Source: Candidatus Poribacteria bacterium (lineage in GTDB: Bacteria > Poribacteria > WGA-4E > WGA-3G). From it: DNA of 64,000 nucleotides. This document shows positions 7,408-28,006 of the stretch, one piece after another (the first letter of the stretch is position 1; each line of letters starts with the position of its first letter). The notes under the pieces were generated by a model. That model was given only the letters and a program-made list of their open reading frames with translations, did not search any database and had not been told where the DNA came from. Location of the stretch: contig JAJEDB010000089.1 in assembly GCA_022821725.1 (NCBI GenBank), positions 4,074-68,073 on the forward strand, read 5' to 3'. A program made the translations under genes and the position numbers.

Positions 7408-9249
7408 TTACTGATACCAGTGTGCCTGTGCTCTAAAGAATTGGGCGTAGCGTCCATTTCTGGCAAGTAACGTTTCATGTGTGCCATCTTCAACAATACG
7501 TCCGGCATCCAAGACCAAAATACGATCAGCGAGACGGGCGGATCCAATTCGGTGTGAAATCAGGAACGTCATCCGACCTGCCGCGAGTTCAACAAACCGT
7601 TGGTAGAGTTCGACTTCAGCCTGTGGATCCAACGCGGCAGTTGGTTCATCAAGAACGAGGACTTGCGGATTGCGCGCCAAAGCCCGCGCAAGCGCGACTT
7701 TTTGCCATTCTCCGCCGGATAACTCGGCACCTTCGCCATCTTTACCGAGGGAAGGGTCCAGATAGGTATCCAATCCGTGTGGAAGCGTTTGAAAACGATC
7801 CGCGATGCCAACGGCATTGATGACATTCCAGAGGGTATCATCGTCAATATGGAGACCTGGCGGGCCCGGCACGAGTTCTTCCCGTACCGGTCGGCGGAAC
7901 CGCGTAAAATCTTGGAAAACCGCGGCACAGTTAAGGGCAATCTGTTCTGGCGCAATTGACTTCGCGTTCATACCGTCATAGCGGATTGTGCCGTCATTGG
8001 GCTGATAGAGACCGAGCAACAATTTGATGAGTGTCGATTTTCCTGCGCCGTTAACGCCTACGATACTCACGACTTCTCCGGGACGCACGTGAAAATTTAT
8101 ATCCTGTAGCACATCATCAGTTGCCTCCGGGTATCGGAAGCGTAAATTACGAACCTCTAATCCTTGCTGTAAGGGCTGCGGAAACGTCTCTGTTCCTACC
8201 TGTGTGCGCGCCTTTTCTGCGCGTTGTAGGAAGAAATGCAGGTCCCGAAGCAGGGGTAAATCCCTGAATATGTTTTGTATGCTTCCCAGCAATCCCTCCA
8301 TATTTCCCTGAAAGGTCGCCGCTGCACCGGTAAGCACAACGTAATCCCCGAGCGTGAGGTTCCCGTCTACAATACGTGCCGCGAGTATGCCGATCGCTAT
8401 CGCGTAGGCAACAATTTCGGCGACAGTTGTGCCGATGGAAGCCCGTATTTCTGTCCAAATCATTGAGACGGATTCTTTCCGCCATTTACGGTGGTTCGTT
8501 CGCCAGCGTCTAAAAAAGCGATCAAAGAGTCCGTAGAGTCTGACCTCCTGTCCAGATGATGAACCGAGGAGTAGACCGATCATGTAATCCATCATACGAC
8601 GGACAGGTGTAGTATGGTAATCGTAGATGTATTGCTTTTCGGCTGTTTTAACTTTGAACCACGCCGAAGGGATTGCGGGTAACACCACCACAAGCACGAG
8701 CAGCGGGTCCGCGATCCAGAGGAGAACACCGTATCCGACGAGGGTTACGCAGAGTTGTCCAATCTCTGTGAGAAACCGCAGAAAATTGGTGAGTCGATGA
8801 TCCAGCGCCTGTCGCGCCCGTTGTATCAGATCGTAGGTTTGTGGCTGATCGAAGAGGGCAAAGTCGATATATGTTGCGGCTTCAATCAAGGCATGCTGTT
8901 GATGAACTTTAATACGGTTCTGCATCTTCCATCGCAAGTAACCGTCATAAGTGCCAGTTATGTTTCTAAAAAGTGCCAAACCGACCAATGCGATCACCCA
9001 AGGGGCTGCGGTCTCTAAGCTGGGTTCCGCTTCCTGAGCCAGAATGGCTGTGATGAAGTTCACCAGCCCCCGGCTCGCCCAGAGGATACCAATTGGGATA
9101 AGTCCATGGATGAGTGTTAGGAGTGCTTGTGCGATGGCTCCGAATGGACTCACGTGCCACGCGACAAAGAAAAAACGGCGCAATGTCTTTAGGGCAGAGG
9201 GACGGGATTCTGATTCTGTGTTGGGGGGATGTGTATTGTTGCTATCCAT
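7408..9249 (-). CDS. ABC exporter, fused transmembrane and ATP-binding domains; likely the heterodimer partner of 5051-6898
   Basis: Walker A GVNGAGKST, signature LSGGEWQKVALAR, Walker B LVLDEPTAALD. Same orientation as the adjacent paralogue. Confidence 0.85.
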   Translation of the reverse strand: MDSNNTHPPNTESESRPSALKTLRRFFFVAWHVSPFGAIAQALLTLIHGLIPIGILWASRGLVNFITAILAQEAEPSLETAAPWVIALVGLALFRNITGTYDGYLRWKMQNRIKVHQQHALIEAATYIDFALFDQPQTYDLIQRARQALDHRLTNFLRFLTEIGQLCVTLVGYGVLLWIADPLLVLVVVLPAIPSAWFKVKTAEKQYIYDYHTTPVRRMMDYMIGLLLGSSSGQEVRLYGLFDRFFRRWRTNHRKWRKESVSMIWTEIRASIGTTVAEIVAYAIAIGILAARIVDGNLTLGDYVVLTGAAATFQGNMEGLLGSIQNIFRDLPLLRDLHFFLQRAEKARTQVGTETFPQPLQQGLEVRNLRFRYPEATDDVLQDINFHVRPGEVVSIVGVNGAGKSTLIKLLLGLYQPNDGTIRYDGMNAKSIAPEQIALNCAAVFQDFTRFRRPVREELVPGPPGLHIDDDTLWNVINAVGIADRFQTLPHGLDTYLDPSLGKDGEGAELSGGEWQKVALARALARNPQVLVLDEPTAALDPQAEVELYQRFVELAAGRMTFLISHRIGSARLADRILVLDAGRIVEDGTHETLLARNGRYAQFFRAQAHWYQ

Positions 9250-9261: not shown

Positions 9262-9299
9262 TTAAAAATAAAACCTACGGGGTTTAATCCGCAGGTTTT
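9262..9299 (-). terminator. Rho-independent terminator after sigma-fusion gene 1
   Basis: On the minus strand: AAAACCTGCGG-ATTAAACC-CCGTAGGTTTT, followed by TTTTATTTTTAAT. Confidence 0.5.
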
Positions 9300-9401
9300 A
9301 GAAAAAATCACTTAAAATTATCGGAACGAATTGTGTCCTACGAAAGCACTGGCACCAAATGCGTTTTCAAAACGCATCCGACGCCGGTTACGGAGCAGGT
9401 T

Positions 9402-12389
9402 CTATTCTCCTTCAAGCGAGATGTGCAATATTCCCCGATCTTCAGTAGCACTATAGAGTTTATTGTTAGCAATAGCGAGTGCATTGATTTCATCTGGCAC
9501 ATCTGAAGCAACCCGTTTCCATTGACGACGAGCGTCCAAATGATAGATGCCGGCATCGCCGATACCATAAACTTTCGTGCCCTCTACTGCAAATCTATCT
9601 ATAATAGTGTGTGCTCTCACGCTATTGGTGAGCACGTTCCAGTGTTCACCGGTTTGTGAACTCAAGACTCCAGCATCTGTTGACACATAGACGGTCGTTG
9701 CTGCAAAGGCTATCTCATTGAAGCAGGTAAAGCCAAGAGGCAGGTTTGGTGTGACGTCTCTCCAACTGTTCCCGCCATCAAGTGACTGAAACAACTTACC
9801 ATCTCGCTTGCCTACATAGACAGTTTCTCCTGAAACCGCTATCTTGAGTCCCTTTCTGGAGACACCATCAGACATGTGACTTGTATCTATCAATCCCGTA
9901 TTTATCCACTCTGGATCACCAAGTCTCCATTTGAACAGACTGCCTTTGTATTCCACGTAGAACACATCACGACTGACTGCAACCGTTTTGACTTCCACAT
10001 TTCCAGGAACAGGAGATGTCGTGATTGACGCATCGCCTTCTTTTGAGCTATCAGATGAGTGTTTTGTCTTTACCTTTGTGCCACTTGCCCACAATTCAGG
10101 AGATAACGTCCTATCATCAAAAGCAGGTATGCCTTGAATCGGACTGAGCGTATTACCATCTGTAGATAAGCGGAAAATTTTCAGGTTGTTGCCTTGACGT
10201 GCCACAAAATAAAGACGGTTGCCATCCACCATCAGTTTTGAATGAAAAAAGATATGGACGCGGGCATTGTTCTTATCTTTTTCTGACCATTCAAACTTAG
10301 TAGACTCTGCCCCAAAGCCCCCGTCAATCATAAGTTTTTTCCAAGACACACCTTCGTCGGTTGATTGATAAACCTCATAACCTGTATGCGCGTAGACTCT
10401 GTTGTTGAGGACAACCATATCCTTTAGGCGTGTGCCTGCCATCCCATCTACAAATAGGCCCCACGAGTTGCCACCGTCCGTTGTCCGAAAAATGCCGTAT
10501 GGACCCGTTTTGTAAAATGTCATCTCGTCCGCCACCACAGCTGGAAGCGTGTTGATCATGACCATATTCGTGTCTCCTGGCAGTTCTATCCAGGTTTGTC
10601 CGTTATCTGTTGAACGATATTCGTGCTTGACACTTGACGTGAAGAGTGTCTTACCAGCAGCCAAAACTGTTATGCCAGATGGTATCCCGTGATCATCAGA
10701 TTTATAACTCGGTGTTATTTCAGTCCACGATACCCCCAGGTCAGCTGAATGGAAAATCTTGAGTGCCTGCGACTCGACTTTTGGAACCATTTGTCCTGTT
10801 TTTATCGGCGTGAATCCCAACAGATTGGGACCGGTTCCAACATAGAGATTATTCTTAGACACTGTCAAGGAGTAGACGGCTCTTGCTGTCTCCACCGGCA
10901 ACTTCTTCCAAACACCTGAATCGAGACGATAGAGACCCCTCCCTGTACCCATAAATACTGTTTCTCCAACAGCAGCGACTGCGGAAATTAGCTCACCTGT
11001 CAATCCATTGTTAAGTGGATGCCATTGTGTTCCGCCGTCTATGGATCGGAAAACCCCTTCATCTCTAAGTGCCAGATACATCGTGATATGTGCTTGTGAA
11101 TTAGCATCTTGGGGTGTGCCTGTGATGATAAGTCCAACGGTGTGTCCCTTTGGGCGGGGACCCAGCGAATGCCATGACTCACCGCTATCAACCGAAGTGA
11201 ATATTTCATCCACAGAGGCGATATAGAGACGACCATTATGCTCTGCCATCGGCATTCGAGCGTTGCCAATAGGAACGTTGGCGTTGAGGCGCGTCCATTC
11301 GGTTGCGTCCGCGGCTAATCTGTATATTCCTGTGGGTGCGACAGTATAGACCGTTCCTCCAGAGGTAGCGAACATATCCTGTATACGTCCCCCTGGCGGG
11401 GAATTTCCCTGTGTCCACTGCGAGGAGGTCCCGAACTTAAGAGAATCCTCCAGCGCACTGGATTTCGTAACTGTTTCAGAGACCTGAATACCAGCACTGT
11501 TGCTTTTACCGGGGGCGGCAGCTCGGCCGAACTGATTTCGTATAGATGGCTTTGATACAATATCAAGCACGATGGGGGCATCGACAATTTCAATCGTGGG
11601 TTCGGATTCCGCCTCGAAACTATACGGCTTCTGAAATCTGGCAAGATACTGATTACTCACACCGAGCATAAAAATAACGAAAGCCACAGCGGTCCCGAAA
11701 GCCATCCACGGGATCAATGGCTTTCCAGTCGGAGCCGGTGTCGGCTGCATGTTAGCCACCTGTTCCATGATACGCTCGGTCACGTGGGCGGGGAATGGGA
11801 TGCTCCCGAGTGTTTCACTCACCAGAAGTTCCTCTCGTTGTTCCTGTAAACGTTTCCGTCCGCGGCGCAGTCGACTCTTAATTGTGTTCACCGACACCCC
11901 TAAGAGTTTCCCAATTTCCTTTGCTGTCATCTCTCCGAGAAAGTGGAGTGTTACCACTGTACGCTCACTCTCCGGTAGCTGCGCCAGGAGTTTTTTGACG
12001 AGTTCACGACGATGCTCGGTGACCTCCGTTTGTCGTTTTTCCGATACATAATGTGTGTAAGAGGATTCTTGGATTTCTTCCACGGGAGTGTCCTCCAATG
12101 AGTGCATCGCAAATTTGTTTTTGTTCTTTTCGAGCCATTTAAGACAGAGCCGACTGGCGATGACATACATCCATCCGGAAAACTGATTCGGATTCTTGAG
12201 TTGCGTGAGGTTCTTGTAGACTTGGAGGAAAGTGTCTTGGACAATCTCTTCAGCGATGTGAAAATCGCCAACTTTTCGCCACGCCAGTGCATGAATACCC
12301 TTTTGGTGCTTTCGGACTAAGGCATTGAATGCGGCGTCATCGCCGGACAAGATCCTACGAATCAGTTGAACATCGTCTTTTGTTTCCAT
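9402..12389 (-). CDS. Fusion protein: ECF sigma factor (sigma-70 regions 2 and 4), then a single TM helix, then a large BNR/Asp-box (SxDxGxTW) beta-propeller ectodomain
   Basis: The N-terminal 190 aa contain region 2 (FNALVRKH…DTFLQVY) and region 4 (ERTVVTLHFLGEMTAKEIGKLLGVSVNTIKSRLRRGRKRL). Hydrophobic segment LIPWMAFGTAVAFVIFMLGV. Then more than 10 repeats of S/TxDxGxSW (STDNGQTW, TTDGGNSW, STDEGVSW, SLDGGNSW…). Confidence 0.75.
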   Translation of the reverse strand: METKDDVQLIRRILSGDDAAFNALVRKHQKGIHALAWRKVGDFHIAEEIVQDTFLQVYKNLTQLKNPNQFSGWMYVIASRLCLKWLEKNKNKFAMHSLEDTPVEEIQESSYTHYVSEKRQTEVTEHRRELVKKLLAQLPESERTVVTLHFLGEMTAKEIGKLLGVSVNTIKSRLRRGRKRLQEQREELLVSETLGSIPFPAHVTERIMEQVANMQPTPAPTGKPLIPWMAFGTAVAFVIFMLGVSNQYLARFQKPYSFEAESEPTIEIVDAPIVLDIVSKPSIRNQFGRAAAPGKSNSAGIQVSETVTKSSALEDSLKFGTSSQWTQGNSPPGGRIQDMFATSGGTVYTVAPTGIYRLAADATEWTRLNANVPIGNARMPMAEHNGRLYIASVDEIFTSVDSGESWHSLGPRPKGHTVGLIITGTPQDANSQAHITMYLALRDEGVFRSIDGGTQWHPLNNGLTGELISAVAAVGETVFMGTGRGLYRLDSGVWKKLPVETARAVYSLTVSKNNLYVGTGPNLLGFTPIKTGQMVPKVESQALKIFHSADLGVSWTEITPSYKSDDHGIPSGITVLAAGKTLFTSSVKHEYRSTDNGQTWIELPGDTNMVMINTLPAVVADEMTFYKTGPYGIFRTTDGGNSWGLFVDGMAGTRLKDMVVLNNRVYAHTGYEVYQSTDEGVSWKKLMIDGGFGAESTKFEWSEKDKNNARVHIFFHSKLMVDGNRLYFVARQGNNLKIFRLSTDGNTLSPIQGIPAFDDRTLSPELWASGTKVKTKHSSDSSKEGDASITTSPVPGNVEVKTVAVSRDVFYVEYKGSLFKWRLGDPEWINTGLIDTSHMSDGVSRKGLKIAVSGETVYVGKRDGKLFQSLDGGNSWRDVTPNLPLGFTCFNEIAFAATTVYVSTDAGVLSSQTGEHWNVLTNSVRAHTIIDRFAVEGTKVYGIGDAGIYHLDARRQWKRVASDVPDEINALAIANNKLYSATEDRGILHISLEGE

Positions 12390-12421
12390 TAGAATACTCC
12401 CTGGTTATCAGATCCATTTAT

Positions 12422-12457
12422 AATTAAAGATACTATTTTGAAACCGAAAGGGTGCAT
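12422..12457 (-). promoter_or_regulatory. Candidate promoter (site 1 of a three-member family): ATGCACCCTT-N20-TTAATT, 33 nt upstream of the sigma-fusion-1 ATG
   Basis: The exact motif and exact 20-nt spacer are shared with sites at 15341-15376 and 22399-22434. A T-run lies upstream on the coding strand. Confidence 0.5.
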
Positions 12458-12739
12458 AACTTTGAAAAATAGCAGGAAATTGATCGCCTCTAAATTTATG
12501 ATACCAGAAATCCAGGGCGTTTTATAGTAAAATCCCAAAATATATGAACCGGTCTTCAATGAACAAAGTCCAACACCGCCGCTGGCAAAGATTGTATCCT
12601 CGCCCGATAATGTCCAAATAATTATGGACCTTACTATAAGCAAGGCTTACGCTAATTCCGCGCTTCTGTTGTTTGCTTAGATAGCATCCAGAGAAGCGTG
12701 TCCTGCGTAAGCCTCACAATATCGATGGAACAGAATATT

Positions 12740-13741
12740 TTAGTTGGACCCCTGCGGAGGAGCCGGTTCCTGTGAAGGCGTCGGTTTTTTGGGCGCGGTT
12801 AAAGTCTCTTGTATGTCCTCAATCTGCTTCCCAAGGTCTACAAGTTGTTGTAAATTCAACTCTTTTTTCGCACGTTCGAGTTGAGTCATGGCGCGTTCAA
12901 TTTGCGCTTTACTGTGTTGAATCTGAGCCTTGGCACGTTCAACCGCATCCTTACTGCGTTCGATGGCGAGTTTAGCGTTCTTTTTCCGCTGTTCAATCTG
13001 CGCTTTCGCATGTTTGAGTTGCTCTGTGCCGCGTTCGAGTTGTGCGTTAGCACGTTCGATCGCTTCTTTACTGCGTTCGATAGCAAGTTTGGCGTGCTCT
13101 TTACGCTGCTCAATCCGCACTTTAGCACGTTCAACAGTCTTCTTACCGCGTTCAATCTGTTCCACAGAGGCTTGGATCTTGGTGTGATCCTTTACCAACT
13201 TATCGATGTAAGCGGCTTTATAAGTTTCCCAATCATCCGTTGGTGGGATACCGAGGAATCCTGACTGCTGCAGATCTGGATTGTCTTCCAAGAGTGCCAA
13301 AGTGTAACGCTTCGACAACATGGATGCATACTCGAAAGAATCATCTATAGTGATGCCTTTATCCAGCAGGAGTTGAAGCCATTCCGCCCGTGGATACCTT
13401 GCATCTATCTCACTTATTGTGAAGGCACTGCTATAAGTCGTGGTTTTTGGACCTGTGAACTTACCGGACACACTCACGCTGGTCTTTGCCAAGCTCTGAT
13501 TGTAATCCGCATCTAACGCTTTCATCAATTCTTGCACATTTTGGGGACCGGTATACTTTTTATACACGGACGGTGCTTTTGCGTCGAGTTCAATGTGTTC
13601 ACGTAACTGCATATTCGACGCTCCAATTTCATGACCGTGTGCCGATAGATAGAGAGAGACACTCCAAAAAATGGCGAGTCCTAAAGTTGCAAAGAGTGTT
13701 AGTCTTGCCAGAGTTTTTCTCCCGTGAAAAATACTTTTCAT
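12740..13741 (-). CDS. Membrane-anchored or secreted coiled-coil protein with 11-residue tandem repeats (ERAKAQIE…/AIERSKEA…)
   Basis: RBS AAGGAG. N-terminal signal/anchor (LTLFATLGLAIFWSVSLYLSA). The C-terminal 120 aa consist of apolipoprotein-like 11-mer repeats encoded by 33-bp DNA tandem repeats. The Pro/Gln-rich tail is consistent with a flexible extended end. Confidence 0.6.
   Translation of the reverse strand: MKSIFHGRKTLARLTLFATLGLAIFWSVSLYLSAHGHEIGASNMQLREHIELDAKAPSVYKKYTGPQNVQELMKALDADYNQSLAKTSVSVSGKFTGPKTTTYSSAFTISEIDARYPRAEWLQLLLDKGITIDDSFEYASMLSKRYTLALLEDNPDLQQSGFLGIPPTDDWETYKAAYIDKLVKDHTKIQASVEQIERGKKTVERAKVRIEQRKEHAKLAIERSKEAIERANAQLERGTEQLKHAKAQIEQRKKNAKLAIERSKDAVERAKAQIQHSKAQIERAMTQLERAKKELNLQQLVDLGKQIEDIQETLTAPKKPTPSQEPAPPQGSN
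12880..13190. repeat. Intragenic ~33-bp imperfect tandem repeats (GCACGTTCAAYCG…CTTACTGCGTTCGAT…)
   Basis: All six frames stay open across this segment, which is why spurious overlapping ORFs 12881-13264, 12886-13155 and 12930-13187 appear. The 33-nt periodicity is visible by eye. Confidence 0.6.
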
Positions 13742-13879
13742 TTTTTTTCTCCTTCAGAGGCGTTATGTTGCCTCATGTTTGAAGTTTAACCTTTGACAAT
13801 CTGCGTCTGTATCCTAATGACGCGTTTAAACGCTGTGGGCAATTTGGCTGTTATTACGCCTTGTTATAAGTGCTTCGTA

Positions 13880-15292
13880 TTAAACATCGGAGCGGAAAAA
13901 TTTCAGAAACGCTACCGTTGTCAGTGCCACTGCAAAGAAACAGAGGAGTAGTACATCCGCCACCGATTGACGGAAGGTTTCTCCTAAGGTTGTCGTCTCC
14001 ACGCGAGGGGGTTGCGTGACTGTGACAGTATCCTCTGGTGTATATGTTCTTATAGAGATATGATCTTCGACTTTACTGAACAGATCCTCATCAAGGGCAT
14101 CATAATAGCGATCCGCCGCTTGGTAGTAACTATTTCTTTTTAGTTTCCCAGTCTCTGTTAGATTTGTAGCGAGATAGATGAGTGAGGCTGTCGGTGTGAT
14201 TCGGGAAAGGGTCTCACCGACCTGTTCTTGTCGTTGTGTTTCACGTTTATAATCCTGATCGAGTTTGTTAGCATAGTCTTGGAACTTCGATCGATATTCC
14301 GCTTCCAGAGGTTTCGTACATTCATCAACACGCTTCGCATTCTCCCCTGCTATAATTAGGTTTCCGTGCTCGTCCAGGGGCAACTCCATGATGACTTTCA
14401 TTTTTTTCTTGTCGATTTCAGCATTAAAATCGTCCCACATGGCTGTCTTTTCCATATAGACGCTCTGCAAAGTCCGTGTTGGGGCGATGAATTTCGCAGC
14501 GAGAAATCCAACGCGTGGCGTAATCAGCACAGCGAACACCCAGACAGTAAAGGCGACGATAAGTGCTGTTTTAGAATTATCTAAGTGGGTGGAAATTACG
14601 GTCCCAATCGCAAAAAATACCGCAATGTAGAGGAGTGAAACAAGCGTTAGCGTGAGCACTCGTGGAAAGATATCGGGTTCTCCTAAGGGAAACCCTTGCC
14701 AAACAAGCAGGAGTAAGCCGAACAGCAACGACACTAAAAACGGAACGACAAACACTACGTACCCACCAATTAATTTGCTCCATAAAAAGAGGTCGCGCGG
14801 GAGGGAGTTTGCCAAGGTAATCCGAAGCGTGCCTGCCTCTCTTTCTCCAGCAACGGCATCAAACGTAAACAGGAGTGCCAACAGACTGAAAACTGTTCCG
14901 ACGATAAAGAGAAAGTCGAGGTGTCCCAGCAGATAGGAGAGGGATGCCGAGACCAATGCCGGTGGCCCCTGTGTAATTCCATTGCGGGTCATCCCAAGAT
15001 AACTTGGAAGTGCCTCTCCTAATCCGTTTGCAAAGACACTTAAAGGTGTCGGTTTGAGAAATAGTTTAGATACCTCAATCTCCGGTTCCAGTGGTGTTTT
15101 CGGGTTCATTGTGGTTTCCTCGATATTCGTCAGTTTAGCGGCTTCCTGATAGTCAACGAGGTTCTGATTATACTTTCGATAGTTGATAGAGAGTGTAAGT
15201 GGTATGAGCAAAAGACACATCAGAAGTAGCGCGACGAACCGGACGCTTAAGAGATGATGCTGAATCTCTTTTTGAATCAATGTCATTAACAT
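13880..15292 (-). CDS. ABC-2 family transporter permease with a large intervening soluble domain
   Basis: RBS AAAGGAG. FDAVAGEREAGTLRITLANSLPRD is the conserved ABC-2 permease motif. There are six or more TM segments. No cognate ATPase gene is adjacent. Confidence 0.6.
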   Translation of the reverse strand: MLMTLIQKEIQHHLLSVRFVALLLMCLLLIPLTLSINYRKYNQNLVDYQEAAKLTNIEETTMNPKTPLEPEIEVSKLFLKPTPLSVFANGLGEALPSYLGMTRNGITQGPPALVSASLSYLLGHLDFLFIVGTVFSLLALLFTFDAVAGEREAGTLRITLANSLPRDLFLWSKLIGGYVVFVVPFLVSLLFGLLLLVWQGFPLGEPDIFPRVLTLTLVSLLYIAVFFAIGTVISTHLDNSKTALIVAFTVWVFAVLITPRVGFLAAKFIAPTRTLQSVYMEKTAMWDDFNAEIDKKKMKVIMELPLDEHGNLIIAGENAKRVDECTKPLEAEYRSKFQDYANKLDQDYKRETQRQEQVGETLSRITPTASLIYLATNLTETGKLKRNSYYQAADRYYDALDEDLFSKVEDHISIRTYTPEDTVTVTQPPRVETTTLGETFRQSVADVLLLCFFAVALTTVAFLKFFRSDV

Positions 15293-15340
15293 TTGGATTC
15301 TCCTTTCATTTTTCCGTGGAGGGGTATATGCCCGCTTTTA

Positions 15341-15376
15341 CAATTAATGATACAGGTTTGCGCCGAAAAGGGTGCA
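15341..15376 (-). promoter_or_regulatory. Candidate promoter (site 2): ATGCACCCTT-N20-TTAATT upstream of the ABC-2 permease
   Basis: Identical motif and spacing to 12422-12457, about 50 nt upstream of ATG 15292. Confidence 0.5.
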
Positions 15377-15599
15377 TAAAACAAAAAAATCTGGATTTTT
15401 ATCGGTAGGGGTTGATGACGGAGTGGTTTTGGAGAGGCGGGGTTAGAAAACCTACCAGTGATGGGAAGGATTATTGTTTGAACGTCAGGTTGTAGGCGAT
15501 TTTATTCAGCTGATTCTTGGGATTCAGGTTCTGGATGTGTGTGTATCCATTCTTGGAAGGTTGCTAAATCTTGAAAAAAAGAGCGTTTAAGTAAGCATA

Positions 15600-18059
15600 T
15601 CAAAATTCATAGATGAGTCCGACAGAAAAGGTAAAGCCAAGCTGAGGGATCTCCAAAGACTCATTGATTTCAAAACCGAGTTCGTCCGAGTCCTCCTCCA
15701 GTTCCAACGTTTCAAGTTCCCCAAGAAGTCTATCAGCCAAACGGAATCTTATTTTATTTTTCCGATTATAGACATTCAAAATTTCGGTATATGCCGTCAC
15801 AGGGAGGCCCCACAAAGTCCTTTTCTCACTAAAACGGAGATCCAAGCGGTGATAAGACGGAAATTCTGTCGGAAAAATCGCGCCTGCGACATCAGAAATG
15901 AGTGAGTGCATCCCTGCCGTTACAGGATCCTGAACCGTAATAAGATTGTTTAACGGCACTGCAGTGGTGCCACTGGCGTATTGCCACTTCGCCCCAATTT
16001 CTCTTTTTGTCGTAGGACTATAGTTGGCAACAATACTCACCACATGGGTGTTATCAAAAAGGAACGGTTTGTAAACGTCGTCCGGTGTCTCACGTCGTTC
16101 AGCATGGGTATAAGCATAAGACATCCATCCGAAAAACTTTTCGCTCACGCGGTGCCGCAGAAACATCTCCGCACCACTCACAAATCCTGTCCCTTGATTG
16201 AGATATGCGCTTGCAACCGCTGTATCCGAGTCATCAAAAAGTGCATCAATGTTGATGGATCTCGTGACTAATTTCTGCATGTCTTTGTAATAGAGCGCGA
16301 ATTTGAGTTCCGTTTGGGCGGACAATTCATGTTCCAATTCCATGATGTAATGCTCGGTTAGACTCGGTTTTAGGTCTCGGTTTCCATCCGCCTTTAGCAC
16401 TTGGTATGCCAAGGGACTCCGTTCATATCTACCGTAGGCAAACCGGAGCGTAGAGGTCGTTGGCAGTGTGAAACTCAGACTGCCGCGAGGTTGGATTGAT
16501 AGTTCATCTGTCAGATTGAGATAGTCGAACCGCACACCCAAGGCAATAGATAAAGGGGAGAGCAGATCATAGCGAGCCTGAAGGTACCCCTCGGCGCGCC
16601 GAAATGGGTAATTAAATTCGTCAAGCTTCTGTATCCATGACGGTTCTTCATCAAAATCTATGTTCTCCACAGAAGATGTATGTGTATAGCTTTTAGATGG
16701 ACTGAAAGCGAGAAGGAAGCCGGGTTCCAATTGAAGTTTCGGTGTTAATTTGTAGGACACGTCTTCGCGAAGGGTATACGTGGGTGTGTTGATCTTTAAG
16801 TTGTAGATGGATCCTTCACGCTCAGTCTTGCTGTCTTGACTTGAGGTGCCGCCGAAGTGGATATTGAGAAAATTGTGGGAACGCGTCAGGGAAAGATGGG
16901 ACGTGAGTTTATCTGTGAAATCGGAGCGTAGATGAATGCCTTCCGCTTCAAACCCGTTTTTGAAATAGGCGAAAACATCATCTGCTTCTTGGGTTTCTTC
17001 TGATCCAACACCGGAGAAGTCAAAGTGATCTGCCGCGCCTAAGCCGTTGAGCGTGAGATGGTGCTTTGGCGTAAGTTGATAGGTAAATTTGAGTTGATAG
17101 TCCGACCATGTAGGGAGGGTCCAATCGAAGAAAAGCCCAAGAATGAGGTTATGGATAGTGAATCGTCCGGCGATAGAGGCGTAGCCTTTGTCTCCGATTT
17201 TGGTTTCGAGAAACCCAGAGGGCGATATAATGTTCAGGTCGAGTGCGCCTGCCCACCGCTTTTCCAACCGTTCGCGCGAACGGATGTCAATAACTGATTG
17301 TGAATCTAACCCGAATTCGGCACCGTATCCACCGGCATAGATATGAATGTCCTCAATACTATGTGAGTTAATCGTTGAAAAAAGTCCGGCATAGTGAAAC
17401 GGATAACCGAGGGGGGTCCTGTCGAAATAGAGGAGCGTCTCCCCGGGCGGACTCCCCCGAATATAGAGGATCCCGAAGATATCGTTGGGGATACCGATGC
17501 CTGGCAGCGTCGTGAGTCCCTTAAGCGCATCACGTCCAGTCCCAGGGATCCGTATCAGTTCGCTGCCGCGAATTTCCTTGCGGCTCACCGTCGGGGGTAG
17601 CCGTTGTCCCTCTACAAAAATGGGTTCAAGCCGTGTTGCTGCCTCCGGACTATCGGGGATTTCGACAAACGTTCCTTCTGTATTGATGGAAAATCGCCTG
17701 CGGAGCGTCTCCCCTGCGCGAATTTCAATTGGAATTTCTGTGGATGTATTGTGAGTTGGATGGAAGATGGACAGTGTATATGCTCCGACGGGAATTTCAA
17801 TGAACCGAAATGCGCCATCTTTATCTGTTTTTTGAGACTGATCGGTTTCAACGATGCGGACCTCTGTTTCAACCAAGGGAACATTAATATCGCGTTGGTA
17901 GAGGGTGCCTTCTATATCACCTGTGCGTGGAAAGATTCGCTGATAGATGCTTCTTTTCGTTTTTGGGGATGTATCTTCTTTAGCATTGTCCGTTTCAGCG
18001 GAAACAGAAAACGGTATCATGAGCATAACACACAGAACAGCATATAAGCAAAATCTCAT
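15600..18059 (-). CDS. Outer-membrane beta-barrel protein, TonB-dependent-receptor-like, with an N-terminal carboxypeptidase-regulatory-like (CarbD) domain
   Basis: Signal peptide MRFCLYAVLCVMLMIPFSVSA. The CarbD-like stretch is GTLYQRD…VRIVETDQS…FRFIEIPVGAYTLSI. The sequence is long with beta-strand alternation and ends in a C-terminal aromatic, …GLIYEF. Confidence 0.6.
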   Translation of the reverse strand: MRFCLYAVLCVMLMIPFSVSAETDNAKEDTSPKTKRSIYQRIFPRTGDIEGTLYQRDINVPLVETEVRIVETDQSQKTDKDGAFRFIEIPVGAYTLSIFHPTHNTSTEIPIEIRAGETLRRRFSINTEGTFVEIPDSPEAATRLEPIFVEGQRLPPTVSRKEIRGSELIRIPGTGRDALKGLTTLPGIGIPNDIFGILYIRGSPPGETLLYFDRTPLGYPFHYAGLFSTINSHSIEDIHIYAGGYGAEFGLDSQSVIDIRSRERLEKRWAGALDLNIISPSGFLETKIGDKGYASIAGRFTIHNLILGLFFDWTLPTWSDYQLKFTYQLTPKHHLTLNGLGAADHFDFSGVGSEETQEADDVFAYFKNGFEAEGIHLRSDFTDKLTSHLSLTRSHNFLNIHFGGTSSQDSKTEREGSIYNLKINTPTYTLREDVSYKLTPKLQLEPGFLLAFSPSKSYTHTSSVENIDFDEEPSWIQKLDEFNYPFRRAEGYLQARYDLLSPLSIALGVRFDYLNLTDELSIQPRGSLSFTLPTTSTLRFAYGRYERSPLAYQVLKADGNRDLKPSLTEHYIMELEHELSAQTELKFALYYKDMQKLVTRSINIDALFDDSDTAVASAYLNQGTGFVSGAEMFLRHRVSEKFFGWMSYAYTHAERRETPDDVYKPFLFDNTHVVSIVANYSPTTKREIGAKWQYASGTTAVPLNNLITVQDPVTAGMHSLISDVAGAIFPTEFPSYHRLDLRFSEKRTLWGLPVTAYTEILNVYNRKNKIRFRLADRLLGELETLELEEDSDELGFEINESLEIPQLGFTFSVGLIYEF

Positions 18060-18373
18060 AAAAAGGTTTGGACCTCCACTTGGAACCTGAATTGCAGACT
18101 GTAACGCTCAATTAGACGTTCCAGTTGACACAGAGATCGCGTTAATCAACAGTCCGCAAAACAGCCAAGCCTATGACGAATCTTTAATAGGATTTACGCA
18201 ATTTTCCCATAAAACGCCACATATTGTGCTATTGGCGAGGTTAGGAGGGAAATCCGCAGAAATACCCTATCAAAGACCCCCAGCAAAAACACCTCGCCAG
18301 CAAGGAAGCTGCGTAAGTCCTGTTTAATTTCAACAACGGCTCGGCTGTAATGGTGAAATGGAATATCTTTCTC

Positions 18374-19168
18374 CTATGGATTCTGTGGATTTTGTTGAAA
18401 AAAAACGCCTTCAGTCCATCTCAGAAACACATCAGTATTCGTGAAATTATTGAGGATTTCTGCGGTTAGCGCAGGGTTGTGCACGGCGAGCCATAAAAGT
18501 CCATCATCTTTTCCGTGCTGCTCAAACTGTTCCTGTATGAAAAGCGCGTCCCTCTTTTCGGTTTCAGTTACGAAATGTTCAAGGGCAGGAAAGAATTCTG
18601 TTACTTGCTCTTTGTTTGGTATATGTATTTCCATCCAAGCCTTTATAGGTGCTTCATCAAGGACTGATAGTTTTTTTTCGAGCACAGCCAATATCGCCTT
18701 GAGAACGTTTTCGTCGTTTCCATCATGTATCATCTGATACAGCATCACGTTTGCACAGCGATACTCCAAAGTTAGCTGATGAACGATCGCTATGTCTTCT
18801 TCGTTGGATTTCCCGATAGATTCCTTCAAAAAGGGTTTGTATCTTTCCGGGTCAGGCTTTGCTACGTCGAGGTAGTCTGCTAACGTTTTAAACGGTTTTG
18901 CCGTCCGATATTCTTGGGTAAGAAAATCCACATACGTTTTAGAAGCTGTCACCTTACCCATGATGGTGAAATCTCCATCAAAAATGGGTTTCGGAAACAA
19001 CACCTTTAGTTTCGCAAACGTGTCTTCCGGTGTAGGTTTGGGGGGTATAGGTTCGGCAATAAGTTTTTCGACAGACGTTGTGTCAGTGTCGGGGTCTTCA
19101 GAGCATCCCAACAATTGAAAAGCAATCACAAAAAGCATAAAGACTGTGAAACGTAAAGAATGCTGCAT
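18374..19168 (-). CDS. Lipoprotein, hypothetical
   Basis: Signal peptide with lipobox FQLLGC|SEDPD. No recognisable domain. Confidence 0.5.
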   Translation of the reverse strand: MQHSLRFTVFMLFVIAFQLLGCSEDPDTDTTSVEKLIAEPIPPKPTPEDTFAKLKVLFPKPIFDGDFTIMGKVTASKTYVDFLTQEYRTAKPFKTLADYLDVAKPDPERYKPFLKESIGKSNEEDIAIVHQLTLEYRCANVMLYQMIHDGNDENVLKAILAVLEKKLSVLDEAPIKAWMEIHIPNKEQVTEFFPALEHFVTETEKRDALFIQEQFEQHGKDDGLLWLAVHNPALTAEILNNFTNTDVFLRWTEGVFFQQNPQNP

Positions 19169-19254
19169 TGTTTGTCCTTTTCGTGTTATCGGTGATAGGC
19201 GTTCGATGCCGTATGGACAGGCACGGATACCTGATTGGGGTGTTGATGTTGTGT

Positions 19255-19313
19255 AACATCAATAGTTTTCTTCTTCAAGCGAGACCTGAAACATCCCGCG
19301 CTTTTCCGTCACA
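19255..19313. repeat. ~60-bp duplicated fragment of the 3' end of sigma-fusion gene 2 (second copy 19386-19444, inside the gene)
   Basis: AACATCAATAGTTTTCTTCTTCAAGCGAGACCTGAAACATCCCGCGCTTTTC[C/T]GT is present twice, 131 bp apart. Confidence 0.7.
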
Positions 19314-19389
19314 ACGATGAATTACAAAAACAAGTTTACATCGTGTAGGGGTGTCCCTTGTGGGTGCCTGCAGCCTTAAATCTATAACA

Positions 19390-22335
19390 TCAATAGTTTT
19401 CTTCTTCAAGCGAGACCTGAAACATCCCGCGCTTTTCTGTTACAGCGTAGAGTGTGTCGCCGTTAATAACGAGAGAAATCACCCGACCTGGCACTTCTGG
19501 CGAGATTTTTTTCCAGGCACCGCGACGATTCAATTGATAGGCACCTTCATTGCCGGCACCGTAGACCCTGGTGCCGGATACAGCAATTCGATCCATAACG
19601 GTATGGCTCCCGGTTTTATCGGTGAGCGCTCGCCAATGCTCACCCGTTTCTGAGGTCAAGACCCCTGTGTCTGTCGCGACATACACTGTGGGTCCCGCGA
19701 AGACGATCGCTTTAAAGTGCTTGAAGCGCAGCGGCAGGTTTGCAGTTAGGTCTTTCCATGTGTTGCCACTATCAAACGATTGCAGGAGGTGTCCATCACG
19801 TTTTCCGACATAGACGGTTTCCCCTGAAACAGCAAGTGTGATACTTTTCTGGTTCTCTTTCACAGCATCGTCATCATTATCAGGGAGCTGGGTTTTATCT
19901 ATCAAGCCGGTGTTGAACCATTCTGGTTCACCGCGTTTCCAGCGGAAAAGCCGTCTCTTATATTCTGTGTAAAATGTCTCGCCGCTCACTGCGAACGCTG
20001 CAGAGAATTTGTCGAGTAGCCGGGTTGTATCTGCCAGACCCATCATGTCCATTATGGAGAGATTTCCACCGAAGGTAGTAGGTCCCTGAATAGGTATGAA
20101 CACGTCGCCATTCGCAGAGAGCCGAAAAAGGCGAACTTCATTTTGCGCGTCGAATGCTGCTGAGATACCGTAAAGCACACCCTCAGAGATCGCCAATTTT
20201 GCGGAAATCAAGATATCCGTAGGTGGGGTTAGGTCTGACGGCTCTAACGCAAGTTCTGCGGAATTCACAAGAAGCGTTTTCCAGGACTTCCCGTTATCAG
20301 CCGATTTGGCGATACCTAAGCCGGTATTTGCGTAGAGTGCGTTTTTGAATGTTACCAAGTCAAACACTTTAGTGCCGACCATCCCTTTCGTGAACGGGTG
20401 CCACGACTGCCCGCCATCCGTTGAACGGATCAGCCCGTCGCGAACTCCAACTTTGAGAAATGTGTTTTTATCCACTGTTAATGTAGGGAACATACTGAGT
20501 GTCACCGAATTCATCATCGCATTCATATCAGATGTGTCAAACCCTGAGTCTGTCCATGTTTTCCCGCCATCCGTTGAGCGGAACGTGGTGACACCTAAGG
20601 CCAATAACGTCTCTCCAGCCGCCAAGACTTTAACACCCGGTGACATTTTCATTGTGAACGAAGTGCTTTTCGGTGTTAGTTCCGTCCATGTATCCCCCAA
20701 GTCGGTTGAGTGGAAGATCTCCCATGAACTTCGGGTGTCGCTGCTCATCACTTGTCCTATGTATGCTCCCATTCCCTCAGGAGTGTTTAATTGAGAAAGA
20801 TCGGGACCTGTTCCAACATAGAGGTTGTTTTCATAAACTGCCAAGGAGTGGATGGCTTTAGTGGTATCGACCGGCAATTTTTCCCACATCCCTGCGCGCG
20901 AGCGGTAGAGTCCGTGGTTCATGCCTGCAAACACACTGTTTTCGATGGCAGTAAATGTGAGAATGTGAGTGTTTTCGCTGAGTATCCCATCGTTCATTGG
21001 CATCCACTGTTTACCGGCATCTTCGGATCGGAAAATCTGATTCTCAAGGGCGAGATATAGACCTGCGTCCGTTATTGCGAGTCCGATAGCATTTCCTTTT
21101 GGACGCGGACCCAGCGACTCCCATGTTTCGCCGCTATCGGTTGAAGCCCACACTTTATCAGTGGATACAAGGTAGAGGGTGCCGTTTCGTTCTGCCATGG
21201 GTTTCCAGTTGGAGTCTGCCGGAGCCTCTGGCGGCAATGGACTAACGTATGTCCATACAGATGCATTTGGTGTTAATCTATAGATACCCGCCGGTGAAGC
21301 GGTATAGATATCTCCTGTGGAGCTGAGGAGTAACCCCGATACATGTCCACCTTCTGGACCGTTTGCTTGTATCCACTGCTGTTTTGTTGATGGACGTGTC
21401 TCCTTCTCTATCTGCGCAGCGGCGAGCACAACAGGCTCCGAAACTTGTGGACCGGCCCCTCTACTTTTGCCAGTGGTATCAAAGCGTCCGGCTTGGTTCC
21501 GTAAATCGGGTTTTGCCTGTATATCAAGGACAATGGGGGCATCGATGATTTCAACGGTGGTTTCTGATCTGGCGTTCAGGTTATACGGTTTCTGAAAGTG
21601 GGCGAGGTATTGCGACCCGGCACCCATTATTAAAAAGATAAAGATGGCTGTTGCGGCGGAGATTGCCCAAGGTATTAAGGGTTTGCTGTTCGTAGGCGTT
21701 ACCGGCTTTAGGTTGGCAACTTGCTTTACAATGTTTTCGGTAAAAGTGACAGGTAAATCTACACTGCCAAGGGTTTCCCCCACGATGTCATCCTCCTGCT
21801 TTAAACGGTTGCGTGCGCGTTGGAGACGGCTTTTAACTGTATTTGGGGACACGCCTAAAAATTCACTAATCGCTTTATATGTCATTTCTCCAAGATAGTG
21901 AAGTGTCACAACTGTGCGTTCGCTCTCCGGCAGTTTCTCTAAGAGACTTCTGATGTGCCTTTGCCGGTGTTCGGCAGAGGCTTCCTCACGTTGTTCGTCT
22001 TCGTAGTGACGGTAGGAAGATTCTTCAATCTCCTCTCCACTGGTGGTTTCCAAGGATTCCATTGATGGTTTCTGCTTTCGATGCCAGTCAATACAGAGTC
22101 GATCGGCGATGACATAGAGCCATCCAGCGAACTGATTCGGATTCTTTAACGTCGAGAGTTTCTGGTATGCTTTAAGGAAGGTATCCTGTGTGAGTTCCTC
22201 GGCGGTATGGAAGTCGTCAACCTTCCGCCATGCAAGGGCGTGGACGCTTTTTTGGTATTTTTTTACCAGTCTGGTAAAGGCGTTTTCGTCCCCTGTCAGG
22301 AATTGATTGACCAGTTGTGCGTCTTCGTTTTTCAT
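19390..22335 (-). CDS. Second ECF sigma factor–TM helix–BNR/Asp-box propeller fusion (paralogue of 9402-12389)
   Basis: Region 2 (FTRLVKKYQKSVHALAWRKVDDFHTAEELTQDTFLKAY) and region 4 (ERTVVTLHYLGEMTYKAISEFLGVSPNTVKSRLQRARNRL). TM segment LIPWAISAATAIFIFLIMGAGS. Repeated STDGGKTW, STDLGDTW and SFDSGNTW. The C-terminal 150 aa are about 70% identical to gene 1. Confidence 0.75.
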   Translation of the reverse strand: MKNEDAQLVNQFLTGDENAFTRLVKKYQKSVHALAWRKVDDFHTAEELTQDTFLKAYQKLSTLKNPNQFAGWLYVIADRLCIDWHRKQKPSMESLETTSGEEIEESSYRHYEDEQREEASAEHRQRHIRSLLEKLPESERTVVTLHYLGEMTYKAISEFLGVSPNTVKSRLQRARNRLKQEDDIVGETLGSVDLPVTFTENIVKQVANLKPVTPTNSKPLIPWAISAATAIFIFLIMGAGSQYLAHFQKPYNLNARSETTVEIIDAPIVLDIQAKPDLRNQAGRFDTTGKSRGAGPQVSEPVVLAAAQIEKETRPSTKQQWIQANGPEGGHVSGLLLSSTGDIYTASPAGIYRLTPNASVWTYVSPLPPEAPADSNWKPMAERNGTLYLVSTDKVWASTDSGETWESLGPRPKGNAIGLAITDAGLYLALENQIFRSEDAGKQWMPMNDGILSENTHILTFTAIENSVFAGMNHGLYRSRAGMWEKLPVDTTKAIHSLAVYENNLYVGTGPDLSQLNTPEGMGAYIGQVMSSDTRSSWEIFHSTDLGDTWTELTPKSTSFTMKMSPGVKVLAAGETLLALGVTTFRSTDGGKTWTDSGFDTSDMNAMMNSVTLSMFPTLTVDKNTFLKVGVRDGLIRSTDGGQSWHPFTKGMVGTKVFDLVTFKNALYANTGLGIAKSADNGKSWKTLLVNSAELALEPSDLTPPTDILISAKLAISEGVLYGISAAFDAQNEVRLFRLSANGDVFIPIQGPTTFGGNLSIMDMMGLADTTRLLDKFSAAFAVSGETFYTEYKRRLFRWKRGEPEWFNTGLIDKTQLPDNDDDAVKENQKSITLAVSGETVYVGKRDGHLLQSFDSGNTWKDLTANLPLRFKHFKAIVFAGPTVYVATDTGVLTSETGEHWRALTDKTGSHTVMDRIAVSGTRVYGAGNEGAYQLNRRGAWKKISPEVPGRVISLVINGDTLYAVTEKRGMFQVSLEEENY

Positions 22336-22398
22336 CGAATGTCTCCAGGAACTTAAGAGTGAGCGTTTTTAACGCGCGACTATTGGACTGCTGTCACT

Positions 22399-22434
22399 AA
22401 TTAATGACGAGATTTAAAGAGCAGAAGGGTGCAT
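22399..22434 (-). promoter_or_regulatory. Candidate promoter (site 3): ATGCACCCTT-N20-TTAATT upstream of sigma-fusion 2
   Basis: Identical motif and spacing to 12422-12457 and 15341-15376, about 65 nt upstream of ATG 22335. Confidence 0.5.
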
Positions 22435-22707
22435 GACGAGAAAAAATTAGAGAAATTATATCATAACTATACTAAAATGTTTTTCTTGATATGGTGAGAT
22501 ATGGAATTTACGGGTTGTTTTTGGTGGGCATTCCTGTGTTTTTGACATTGAACTCACGTTTTAACGTAAATTTATAATTGGCGAGATCAAATTTTTCAAC
22601 AGAACGCGAATCAGCCAAACCTATAAGAAATTCTTCAATTCCCATAATGGCTTGGCTGTAATTATGAAAGGAATTTTTTCTTAGTTTACTTCCGTGTTTA
22701 AACAGGG

Positions 22708-23145
22708 TTAATCTTTTTGCAGCCAGAGGGTTAGCATCATAGCACCTGCTCCGATGAGAGTCATGCTCGGGTAATACCACCATAGGAACCGATTGCGTTT
22801 TTTCTTAATGGCATTCCTTTTCTTTTGGATCCTCACAATCGCTCTATTTCCTTTTTCACGGGAGGCAAGATCGTTGTTAACCAACATCCAACGTTGAACG
22901 AACAACTCATCTTCATTGAGTTTGTGGATTTCTGCTTGCCATTCATCCAACGGCGTTAGCCAGCGTCCAAAGGAGGTAACGCCCATTACAACGAGCGTTG
23001 GGAGTCCAATGAGAGGGTTGCTTTTTTCGCGAGTGAAGGAATCATTTGTTTCCTTGGTAGGTGTGGCGATTGATATATCCGCCAATAGGATACCAAATAT
23101 TAACGGACAGATAAGGGTTAAGCGCGACGCAAAGGGTAAGGTCAT
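22708..23145 (-). CDS. Small membrane protein, hypothetical
   Basis: ATG at 23145 is preceded by TAGGAGAGAAATC. There are two or three TM segments and a basic KKKRNRF loop. The longer ORF-track start at 23199 lacks an RBS. Confidence 0.45.
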   Translation of the reverse strand: MTLPFASRLTLICPLIFGILLADISIATPTKETNDSFTREKSNPLIGLPTLVVMGVTSFGRWLTPLDEWQAEIHKLNEDELFVQRWMLVNNDLASREKGNRAIVRIQKKRNAIKKKRNRFLWWYYPSMTLIGAGAMMLTLWLQKD

Positions 23146-23341: not shown

Positions 23342-23983
23342 ATGAAACTCTTATCTATAAACGTCTCAAAACCGAAGCCTATTCAATACGGCGGTAAAAC
23401 GGTCCAGACAGGGATTTTCAAAGAACCCGTGTCAGGCACCGTCATGCTCAGAGAGAAGAACATCGACGGTGATGGACAAGGCGATCTGCGGGTCCATGGG
23501 GGCACCTATAAAGCCATCTACGGCTATCCGTTTGAACATTACACCCACTGGCAGCAGGCGTTGCAAAGAGGCGACTTGACCTACGGGCAGTTCGGCGAGA
23601 ATCTCACGGTTGAAGGCCTGCTGGAAACGTCAGTTTATATCGGTGATGTCTTTCAGATAGGGTCAACGGTGAAATTACAGATTACGCAACCGCGCGTGCC
23701 GTGCTTCAAGCTTGCGTATAAGATGGGACTGCCGGAGTTCCCGAAGCAGTTTTTAGAGAGTCGACGCGTTGGCTTCTATTTTCGAGTGCTTGAAGAAGGC
23801 GAAATCGCGGCTGGCGATGCAATTACACGCATTGAAGTTGCATCGGCGTCGATGAGCGTTACAGAAATACTCAACCTACGCTATTTTGATAGGGACAACC
23901 GCGAGAAAATCGCACGCGCCAGAAAACTACCTGCCCTCTCGCCGAGTTGGAAAAGGGATTTTACAAAAATTTTATCAAAATGA
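23342..23983 (+). CDS. MOSC-domain protein (YiiM-like)
   Basis: It has the MOSC beta-barrel core, GDLRVHGG…[12 protein letters not shown]…QPRVPCFKL, with a conserved Cys. Confidence 0.65.
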
Positions 23984-24711
23984 ATATTTTTAAGGCAACA
24001 ACCAAACGCGAAGCGAGCGAAGCAGCAGCACACCTCGCCAGTAGAAAACTTCGAGAGGCATTGGATGCGAATGGACATGCCCGTTTCATCGTTGCAACGG
24101 GGGCGTCTCAATTTGATTTCCTTGCCGCATTGACTGCTGATAAAACGATTGATTGGGACAACACAACGATGTTCCATCTCGACGAGTACATCGGCATTCC
24201 TGAGACACATCCCGCCAGTTTTCGCAAGTATCTGCGAGAACGTCTTGTGGACATCGCTCATCCCGGAACCGTCCATTTCCTAGACGGTGAAGCAGGCGAA
24301 CCGCAAGCCGAATGTGATCGACTCAATCGAATTATCTCGCAACATCAGATTGACGTGGCGTTCGTCGGTATCGGTGAGAATGGACATCTCGCTTTTAACG
24401 ATCCACCGGCGGATTTTGAGACAGAAGATCCGTATATCTTGGTGGAATTAGATGAGGCATGCCGGCTGCAACAGGTCGGCGAAGGCTGGTTTGCTGGGAT
24501 TGATGACGTGCCGACCCAAGCGATTTCAATGTCCATTCGCCAAATCGTGAAGGCGAAAGCGATTGTTTGCACTGTGCCGGATGAACGAAAGGCGGAGGCA
24601 GTGCGGAATTGCTTGCACGGCGAGATAACGCCAATGCACCCTGCTTCGATTTTACAGACGCATCCAGATTGTGCGGTATTTCTGGATGCGGGGTCGGCAT
24701 CGTTGTTGTAG
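23980..24711 (+). CDS. Glucosamine-6-phosphate deaminase / 6-phosphogluconolactonase family (NagB/Pgl)
   Basis: Its ATG overlaps the upstream stop (ATGA). Motifs FHLDEYIGI and [14 protein letters not shown] are diagnostic of the family. Confidence 0.7.
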
Positions 24712-28002: not shown

Positions 28003-28006
28003 CTAT

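Follow-up and report, generated by a model that had tools for sequence, protein, structure and literature searches.

The window analysed here comprises 64,000 nucleotides from a Candidatus Poribacteria bacterium (assembly GCA_022821725.1, contig JAJEDB010000089.1, positions 4,074 to 68,073). It contains two paralogous genes, A and B, each encoding in one chain a sigma factor of the extracytoplasmic function (ECF) type, a transmembrane (TM) helix and a large propeller ectodomain. Both lie in a run of eight minus-strand genes, all in the same direction, and the features of this region are collected in Table 1.

Architecture of genes A and B

The open reading frames of A and B were uninterrupted. 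Both proteins run from the ECF sigma module, predicted to be cytoplasmic, through a linker of ~35 residues and one TM helix to a juxtamembrane segment that is conserved and on to an ectodomain of 14 blades. Sigma70_r2 and Sigma70_r4_2 were matched well above the Pfam cutoffs (24 and 25.7 bits, respectively), and the NCBIfam model TIGR02937 (sigma70-ECF, cutoff 43 bits), covering residues ~20-184, scored 97 bits in A and 111 bits in B. The closest solved relative of the B sigma module was Bacillus subtilis SigW (PDB entry 5wuq, E = 3.7e-29); SigH-type factors and RpoE were the other top relatives in the PDB. On these profile matches A and B classify as ECF (group 4) sigma-70 factors. The TM helices were called as 19-residue segments with a Kyte-Doolittle value above 1.6, of which each protein contains exactly one. 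Because 102 distinct full-length fusion genes were found across 78 independent loci, an assembly or frameshift artefact can be dismissed as the origin of the sigma-propeller fusion. The initial annotation, made from the DNA sequence alone, had described single uninterrupted chains with a complete ECF module, one hydrophobic helix and an ectodomain of BNR/Asp-box repeats, and it was correct on all four points. Since the sigma factor, its tether and a periplasmic BNR-type sensor share one polypeptide, the sigma factor must either be released or act at the membrane, as had also been proposed.

Table 1. Coordinates of features in the A/B region (positions in the window)
Feature	Position	Strand	Description
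Terminator-like hairpin	9269..9300	minus	12-bp stem and T-run; after gene A
Gene A	9402..12389	minus	995 aa; ECF sigma / TM / double propeller; paralogue of B, identity 46%
A ectodomain	9405..11417	minus	7 Asp-boxes; double propeller inferred by alignment to modelled B
A TM helix, aa ~225-246	11652..11717	minus	sole hydrophobic segment of A
A sigma-4 domain, aa 129-183	11841..12005	minus	PF08281, 63.5 bits
A sigma-2 domain, aa 24-90	12120..12320	minus	PF04542, 45.8 bits
ECF-type promoter motif of A	12419..12469	minus	ATGCACCCTT-N15-TATCTTTAATTATA; matrix score 66.0
333-aa membrane-anchored or secreted protein	12740..13741	minus	N-terminal hydrophobic segment; C-terminal repeat array AKxxIERxK
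ABC-2 family permease	13880..15292	minus	470 aa; PF12679 ABC2_membrane_2, 107 bits; motif upstream
Same promoter motif, upstream of ABC-2 permease	15339..15389	minus	matrix score 56.3
TonB-dependent-receptor-like barrel	15600..18059	minus	819 aa; CarboxypepD_reg N-domain; PF00593 TonB_dep_Rec, 61.6 bits
Predicted lipoprotein	18374..19168	minus	264 aa; lipobox LLGC; adjoins B-type fusions
Gene B	19390..22335	minus	981 aa; single-chain ECF sigma / TM / GH74-like double propeller
B ectodomain, aa 330-978	19402..21348	minus	14 four-stranded blades forming two 7-bladed propellers (AlphaFold2)
B juxtamembrane segment, aa 247-295	21451..21597	minus	FQKPY..SE.T.EI(I/V)DAP.V..KP..NQ.G; conserved across family
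B TM helix, aa ~220-241	21613..21678	minus	preceded by conserved KPLxPW
B cytoplasmic linker helix	21712..21756	minus	LPVTFTENIVKQVAN; family consensus LPxxLTENIMxxI
B sigma-4 domain, aa 128-180	21796..21954	minus	PF08281, 65.7 bits; PF04545, 45.5 bits
B sigma-2 domain, aa 23-89	22069..22269	minus	PF04542, 55.4 bits
ECF-type promoter motif of B	22396..22446	minus	TTTTTT..ATGCACCCTT-N15-CGTCATTAATTAGT; matrix score 55.6
145-aa protein	22708..23145	minus	two hydrophobic segments; upstream of B; no family match

The ectodomain was modelled for protein B with AlphaFold2 from an alignment of 40 sequences, and the confident 14-blade structure that resulted (pLDDT mostly 80-90 over residues ~330-978) bears out the propeller expected in the initial annotation. 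Foldseek searches of the PDB with this model placed GH74 xyloglucanases on top (E = 1e-20 to 1e-16, target-normalized TM-score ~0.58), with which the ectodomain shares 15-17% sequence identity. The periplasmic sensors of the Bacteroides hybrid two-component systems (HTCS) BT4663 (heparin), BT4673 and BT3049 were also retrieved (E = 1e-18 to 1e-15), with a lower structural overlap (TM-score ~0.3). With a profile of the first propeller, GH74 chains were reached at E = 1e-20, BT4673 at E = 4e-8. The N-terminal catalytic Asp of GH74 was located by comparing the wild-type entry 2cn2 with the mutant entry 2cn3, which differ at this residue. The GH74 loop around it, R(T/A)D(I/V)GG, is aligned with AASxxG in the family (TASPAG in B and TVAPTG in A), and no acidic residue was present there in any of 12 diverse members. 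As this loop lacks the acidic residue, the ectodomain very likely has a GH74-like fold without being a GH74 enzyme. The 'BNR propeller' of the initial annotation is thus retained, refined to a GH74-like arrangement of 2x7 blades from which the N-terminal catalytic Asp is missing.

Each protein contains seven Asp-boxes (S/T-x-D-x-G-x-x-W). In Pfam, Sortilin-Vps10 (41 and 47 bits, cutoff 33) and DUF6242 were above cutoff in A and B, which were matched by such Asp-box/BNR-type families and had no WD40 match. Sortilin/VPS10 proteins have one 10-bladed propeller followed by 10CC modules. Identity with them was rejected: the matches are short repeat stretches, the model has 2x7 blades and there are just one (B) or two (A) Cys residues per protein. 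A conserved C-terminal tail was considered as a protease signal and discarded, its conservation being that of the last propeller strand.

Between sigma module and ectodomain, several short elements are conserved. The amphipathic linker helix (modelled as helical at residues 198-207 of B, with low confidence) is kept in 43 diverse members taken from clusters at 50% identity. The same members retain KPLxPW at the entry to the TM helix and a Gly inside it; in alignment A1 residues P219, P222 and G238 of B are invariant. On the extracytoplasmic side they share the consensus FQxPYSLxAxSExTxExVDAPxV..KP..NQxG. This juxtamembrane segment, which is predicted to be unstructured in B (pLDDT below 50), is conserved across the clusters at 50% identity and is a candidate cleavage or docking site. 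A TM profile (alignment A2) had as its best PDB match the Notch3 TM peptide (8os0, E = 0.003), itself a substrate of intramembrane proteolysis; the match was set aside as a compositional coincidence.

Class I anti-sigma domains (ASDs) consist of four helices spanning ~80-90 aa and often carry an H-x3-C-x2-C zinc motif. No class I ASD or zinc-binding anti-sigma (ZAS) domain is apparent in A or B: the available gap is only ~35 aa, there is no profile match and the linker is free of Cys. RsiW ends its cytoplasmic part with a helix (APADFTANVMAKL) to which the linker helix is similar in sequence and in its place relative to the TM helix. This resemblance is a short-motif lead without statistical support.

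Family, promoter motif and neighbouring genes

A search of the protein database at 90% identity gave more than 6,700 matches. The top 120 were all full-length at 64-100% identity, and the named ones, all from Candidatus Poribacteria, bear no label beyond 'sigma-70 family RNA polymerase sigma factor' or 'hypothetical protein'. When the ectodomain alone was searched against all 50%-identity representatives, 189 clusters were found at E below 1e-30; as most of the top matches are 950-1045 aa long and match from residue ~250, the sigma-propeller fusion is the dominant architecture. Species-representative genomes contain at least 561 relatives. The best 76 loci all belong to Poribacteria, and several of them sit far apart on the same chromosomes. 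In the 78 loci that were fetched, two or three fusion genes occurred in 21, frequently as tandem arrays. A second subfamily of ~910 aa, again represented by a tandem pair, shares its linker, TM and juxtamembrane motifs with the longer proteins, and these motifs, together with the sigma module, are conserved across clusters at 50% identity.

Rare members depart from this layout. Variants P0147 and P0140 have no sigma module, their first element being the linker helix, P0246 joins the sigma module to the propeller with no TM helix between them and P0222 has an insertion of ~190 aa behind the sigma module. Split genes, miscalled starts and genuine cytoplasmic forms are all conceivable explanations.

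End to end, A and B are 46% identical. The identity is 59% in the sigma module, 55% in the juxtamembrane segment, 33-39% in the mid-propeller region and 53.6% over the last 150 aa, with a maximum of ~62% in one 50-aa block. The divergence of the mid-propeller regions had been seen correctly in the initial annotation; its figure of about 70% for the C-terminal identity was too high, and the recent duplication that it drew from this figure does not stand. Orthologues of A share 89% (L034) and 77% (L049) with it and those of B in other Poribacteria 92-86% (L003, L004, L001 and L005). With only 46% between A and B, their split predates these species.

Upstream of both genes a common element was found, consisting of a T-run, ATGCACCCTT, 15 variable nucleotides (N15) and (C/T)(G/A)TC(A/T)TTAAT (YRTCWTTAAT). 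ECF promoters are usually autoregulated, with an AAC-type -35 and a CGT-type -10 element, and the TGCAMC and CGTC blocks found here, with their spacing, resemble the -35 and -10 elements of classical ECF promoters. The window contains just three exact copies of the string TGCACCCTT, one upstream each of A, of B and of the ABC-2 permease gene. A position weight matrix was built from the related loci, and both strands of the window were scanned with it; the same three sites only were obtained. Over 1.1 Mb (window and loci) it gave 123 sites, including 77 upstream of fusion genes, 12 upstream of ABC-2 permeases and 26 upstream of other genes. Ten of these other genes were scanned: two encode PD40/TolB-like propellers, one a WD40 protein with dockerin, two 3-keto-disaccharide-hydrolase-like proteins, and one a group-1 glycosyltransferase; one gave no more than a sub-threshold DUF3108-like match, and three had no Pfam match. 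A scan for sigma-70-type promoters showed no enrichment (30 found, 22.7 expected).

The B orthologues carry the same motif upstream, and the end of L001 contains a copy identical to the element of A, downstream of a homologue of the 333-aa protein, where an A orthologue would be expected. Subfamilies have variants of both blocks (CGTC, TATC, TGTC and CATC; ACCCTT, AACCTT and ACCCAT). ATGCAMCYTT-N15-YRTC precedes A, B and most family members; its recognition by the A and B sigma modules is a prediction. The placement of the motif argues for autoregulation and for a small regulon whose products would be predicted envelope and secreted proteins.

The genes between A and B are, as first described, a repeat protein, an ABC-2 permease, a TonB-like barrel and a lipoprotein. 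Their reading as an output module bracketed by A and B is supported for the permease, which has the motif and recurs in 16 of the 78 loci, mostly directly upstream of a fusion gene and chiefly one of the A type; it is a candidate regulon member. The 333-aa repeat protein gave no family above cutoff in Pfam and NCBIfam scans. It is kept together with the permease in eight loci, and the two genes are probably co-transcribed. The reading is unsupported for the barrel (six loci) and the lipoprotein (ten loci), the window copies of which lack the motif. The Plug match of the barrel was below cutoff. Close homologues of the lipoprotein (67-87%) occur only in the five B-type loci. The 145-aa protein recurs beside fusion genes in six of the 78 loci.

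Between B and the lipoprotein gene, the last 18 codons and the stop codon of B are copied 131 nt downstream as a 63-nt direct repeat (19254-19316 and 19385-19447, 95% identity). The same scar is present in L003, the locus with the 92% orthologue; L001 and L004 have a single copy and, at this position, an extra gene.

Directly downstream of A, past the hairpin, lies a pair of ABC exporter half-transporters (5051-6898 and 7408-9249, minus strand), which is kept beside the A orthologues (L034 and L049) and is also present in L002. Genes of sugar-metabolism type are densely grouped at 23342-31000 and 46671-47723 (five GFO_IDH_MocA oxidoreductases, two xylose-isomerase-like TIM barrels, one glucosamine-6-phosphate-isomerase-like gene and one PhyH gene). 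The window further contains NHL-repeat propeller proteins (99-1466 and 2165-3013) and two paralogous large membrane proteins with DUF6785 and DUF6784 at ~500 bits each (50629-52515 and 58293-60269, plus strand). A 1088-aa tricorn-type protease with PD40 propellers, Tricorn_C1, PDZ and Peptidase_S41 domains is encoded at 32340-35606 (plus strand); it was considered as a partner and rejected, no link to the sigma fusions being found.

In L001 (12946-14973) a predicted lipoprotein of 675 aa has weak similarity to SpoIVB/Peptidase_S55 (E = 0.002-0.006), with the motifs GMSGSP and GTVT..FIAFGHP. The gene begins within an overlap with the stop of the B orthologue, and it also occurs in L004, L002, L018, L019 and L069. 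As a general site-1 protease partner it was rejected, since it is absent from the window and only six of the 78 loci have it; it is a possible, non-universal site-1 protease candidate.

Proposed mechanism and alternatives

We consider it reasonably probable that A and B are one-chain tethered ECF sigma factors that sense a glycan-type ligand, are released by proteolysis and activate their own transcription. The GH74-like propeller would bind an extracellular ligand, most plausibly a glycan, without hydrolysing it. In the resting state tethering to the membrane, perhaps together with the linker helix as a residual anti-sigma element, would keep the sigma domain from RNA polymerase. Ligand binding would lead to site-1 cleavage in or near the juxtamembrane segment and then to intramembrane site-2 cleavage, and the freed sigma domain would act on its own promoter (positive autoregulation) and on those of the permease and of secreted proteins. 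The many diverged paralogues per genome may form parallel channels for different ligands. Precedent for the proteolytic step is given by IutY, for which it is experimental, and by ECF48, ECF52 and ECF53, for which it is predicted; RsiW, the partner of SigW, is a textbook substrate of regulated proteolysis.

Several points weigh against this mechanism. No anti-sigma domain was detected in the linker, either in Pfam searches to E = 10 (residues 181-325 and 25 linker/TM segments) or with a PDB profile, which leaves unexplained how the uncleaved sigma domain would be silenced. No site-1 or site-2 protease gene is present in the 64-kb window. Ligand binding, cleavage and sigma release are steps that we infer. 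The AlphaFold2 model has moderate confidence for the sigma module and low confidence for residues 182-317. Of the two catalytic positions of GH74, one could be aligned and the other not, as the C-terminal propeller region gave no reliable alignment. The enrichment of the motif near fusion genes is partly built in, as the loci were picked around such genes. Avoidance of cross-talk becomes a question where most paralogues have so similar a motif; alternatively, another sigma factor may read it.

The main alternative is that the sigma factor acts while anchored, a ligand-driven change in conformation or oligomeric state freeing sigma-2 and sigma-4 for RNA polymerase, so that no proteolysis is required and the holoenzyme transcribes membrane-proximal DNA in the manner of one-component membrane regulators of the ToxR/CadC type. 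The short yet conserved linker between sigma-4 and the membrane would fit this, as would the lack of an anti-sigma domain and of a linked protease; the target genes adjoin the sigma genes, which suits a membrane-proximal mechanism. Against it, ~35 residues to the bilayer would be tight for a holoenzyme of ~400 kDa, and conserved Pro and Gly in the TM helix next to a conserved segment predicted to be disordered would be typical of intramembrane-proteolysis substrates. Moreover, IutY, the sole experimentally studied sigma/anti-sigma fusion, is freed by proteolysis. We regard action from the membrane as unlikely.

An equally low probability is assigned to the possibility that the upstream motif is read by another sigma factor or regulator, or is an inherited leader, in which case autoregulation and the regulon would be wrong and the protein architecture would stand. 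A near-identical motif before paralogues that are only 45% identical would be unexpected if each sigma factor had its own specificity. The motif is nevertheless unlikely to be a mere duplicated leader, since it also precedes non-homologous genes (ABC-2 permease, PD40, WD40 and glycosyltransferase) and since only the -35-like and -10-like blocks, at the fixed N15 spacing, are kept between A and B, the flanks being different. Its geometry fits ECF and not sigma-70 promoters, and its variants are subfamily-specific.

That the ectodomain is instead an active, membrane-anchored GH74-type hydrolase with a mainly catabolic role, the sigma factor coupling enzyme abundance or turnover to transcription, is very improbable: GH74 enzymes are its closest solved structures and sequences, but the identity is low, the catalytic loop lacks an acidic residue in all 12 members and a tandem beta-propeller of the same overall architecture is a non-catalytic glycan sensor in the Bacteroides HTCS. 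FecIRA-like signalling through the TonB-like barrel was rejected; the barrel has no motif and no signalling domain and is rarely co-located.

Relation to known systems and significance

ECF sigma factors with transmembrane regulatory extensions are already known as a general class. The sigma/anti-sigma fusion IutY (ECF243) of Pseudomonas putida, which regulated proteolysis involving Prc and RseP activates, is likewise a single polypeptide that joins one TM helix and a periplasmic domain to an ECF sigma factor at its N-terminus. Its anti-sigma/periplasmic domain is of the FecR type and it signals from a TonB-dependent siderophore receptor; in A and B neither a FecR nor an anti-sigma domain was matched, and the extracytoplasmic part is a GH74-like double propeller of 650 aa. 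The barrel next to them has a CarboxypepD_reg N-domain and no signalling-domain match. The actinobacterial groups ECF52, ECF53 and ECF48 (e.g. SCO4117) combine a zinc-finger anti-sigma domain, one or more TM helices and an extracytoplasmic carbohydrate-binding domain, and their activation is predicted to be proteolytic. A and B resemble them in that a transmembrane extension lies C-terminal to the ECF sigma factor and ends in a putative glycan-binding module, and differ in the absence of the zinc-finger motif, the much shorter linker, the sensor fold and the phylum.

In the SigI/RsgI systems of Clostridium thermocellum, paralogous channels sense polysaccharides through extracellular carbohydrate-binding or glycosidase-like modules and the sigma factor is freed by proteolysis; unlike A and B these are two separate proteins, with a sigma factor of the SigI type and not of the ECF type. 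The Bacteroides HTCS (BT4663, BT4673 and BT3049) share the tandem beta-propeller as extracytoplasmic glycan sensor, their output being a histidine kinase, receiver and AraC module and not a sigma factor. With the GH74 xyloglucanases (2cn2, 7kn8 and 5fkr) A and B have in common two 7-bladed propellers and Asp-boxes; in A and B the catalytic Asp loop is replaced, and a sigma factor and TM helix precede the domain. Planctomycetes are a lineage grouped with the PVC superphylum. Some of their ECF sigma factors are linked to WD40 repeat domains, as summarized in PMC8567305 (citing Jogler et al., 2012), and as outlined there they also combine an ECF sigma factor with beta-propeller repeats in many paralogues. 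The propellers in that summary are WD40, unlike the BNR/Asp-box, GH74-like, 2x7-bladed ones of A and B.

The C-terminal extensions listed in reviews and in the 2021 ECF reclassification are SnoaL, TPR, Cys-rich, zinc-finger/TM/carbohydrate-binding and multi-TM. In the literature searched on ECF sigma factors, BNR and Poribacteria no description of this type of sensor on an ECF sigma factor was found, in agreement with the initial annotation. The A/B family is apparently a large, undescribed family of one-protein envelope sensors. More tentatively, it might constitute an ECF group that has not been classified before, spread across Poribacteria and apparently present in several copies in each genome; the anti-sigma factor would be reduced to one helix and a membrane anchor, and the sensor would be a catalytically dead GH74.

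The family offers a large natural set of one-chain ECF systems that have no recognisable anti-sigma domain. It speaks directly to the question whether a tether is enough to silence a sigma factor, and to that of cross-talk among dozens of near-identical promoters. Sigma domains that bring along a sensor and a predicted cognate promoter may serve synthetic biology as orthogonal switches. Counts of GH74 based on hidden Markov models of carbohydrate-active enzymes may include non-catalytic sensors and should be read with caution. As the single-cell genome WGA-3G encodes a fusion gene (L038), it is plausible that part of the GH74 count of the single-cell genomes is made up of these sensors. If the tentative reading as a new ECF group with dead GH74 sensors is true, much of the 'GH74 abundance' cited for the degradation of sponge-matrix glycans by Poribacteria would count signal receptors. 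For the biology of sponge symbionts the fusions are candidate receptors for host or particle glycans, and such sensors would then be a major way in which the symbiont reads them.

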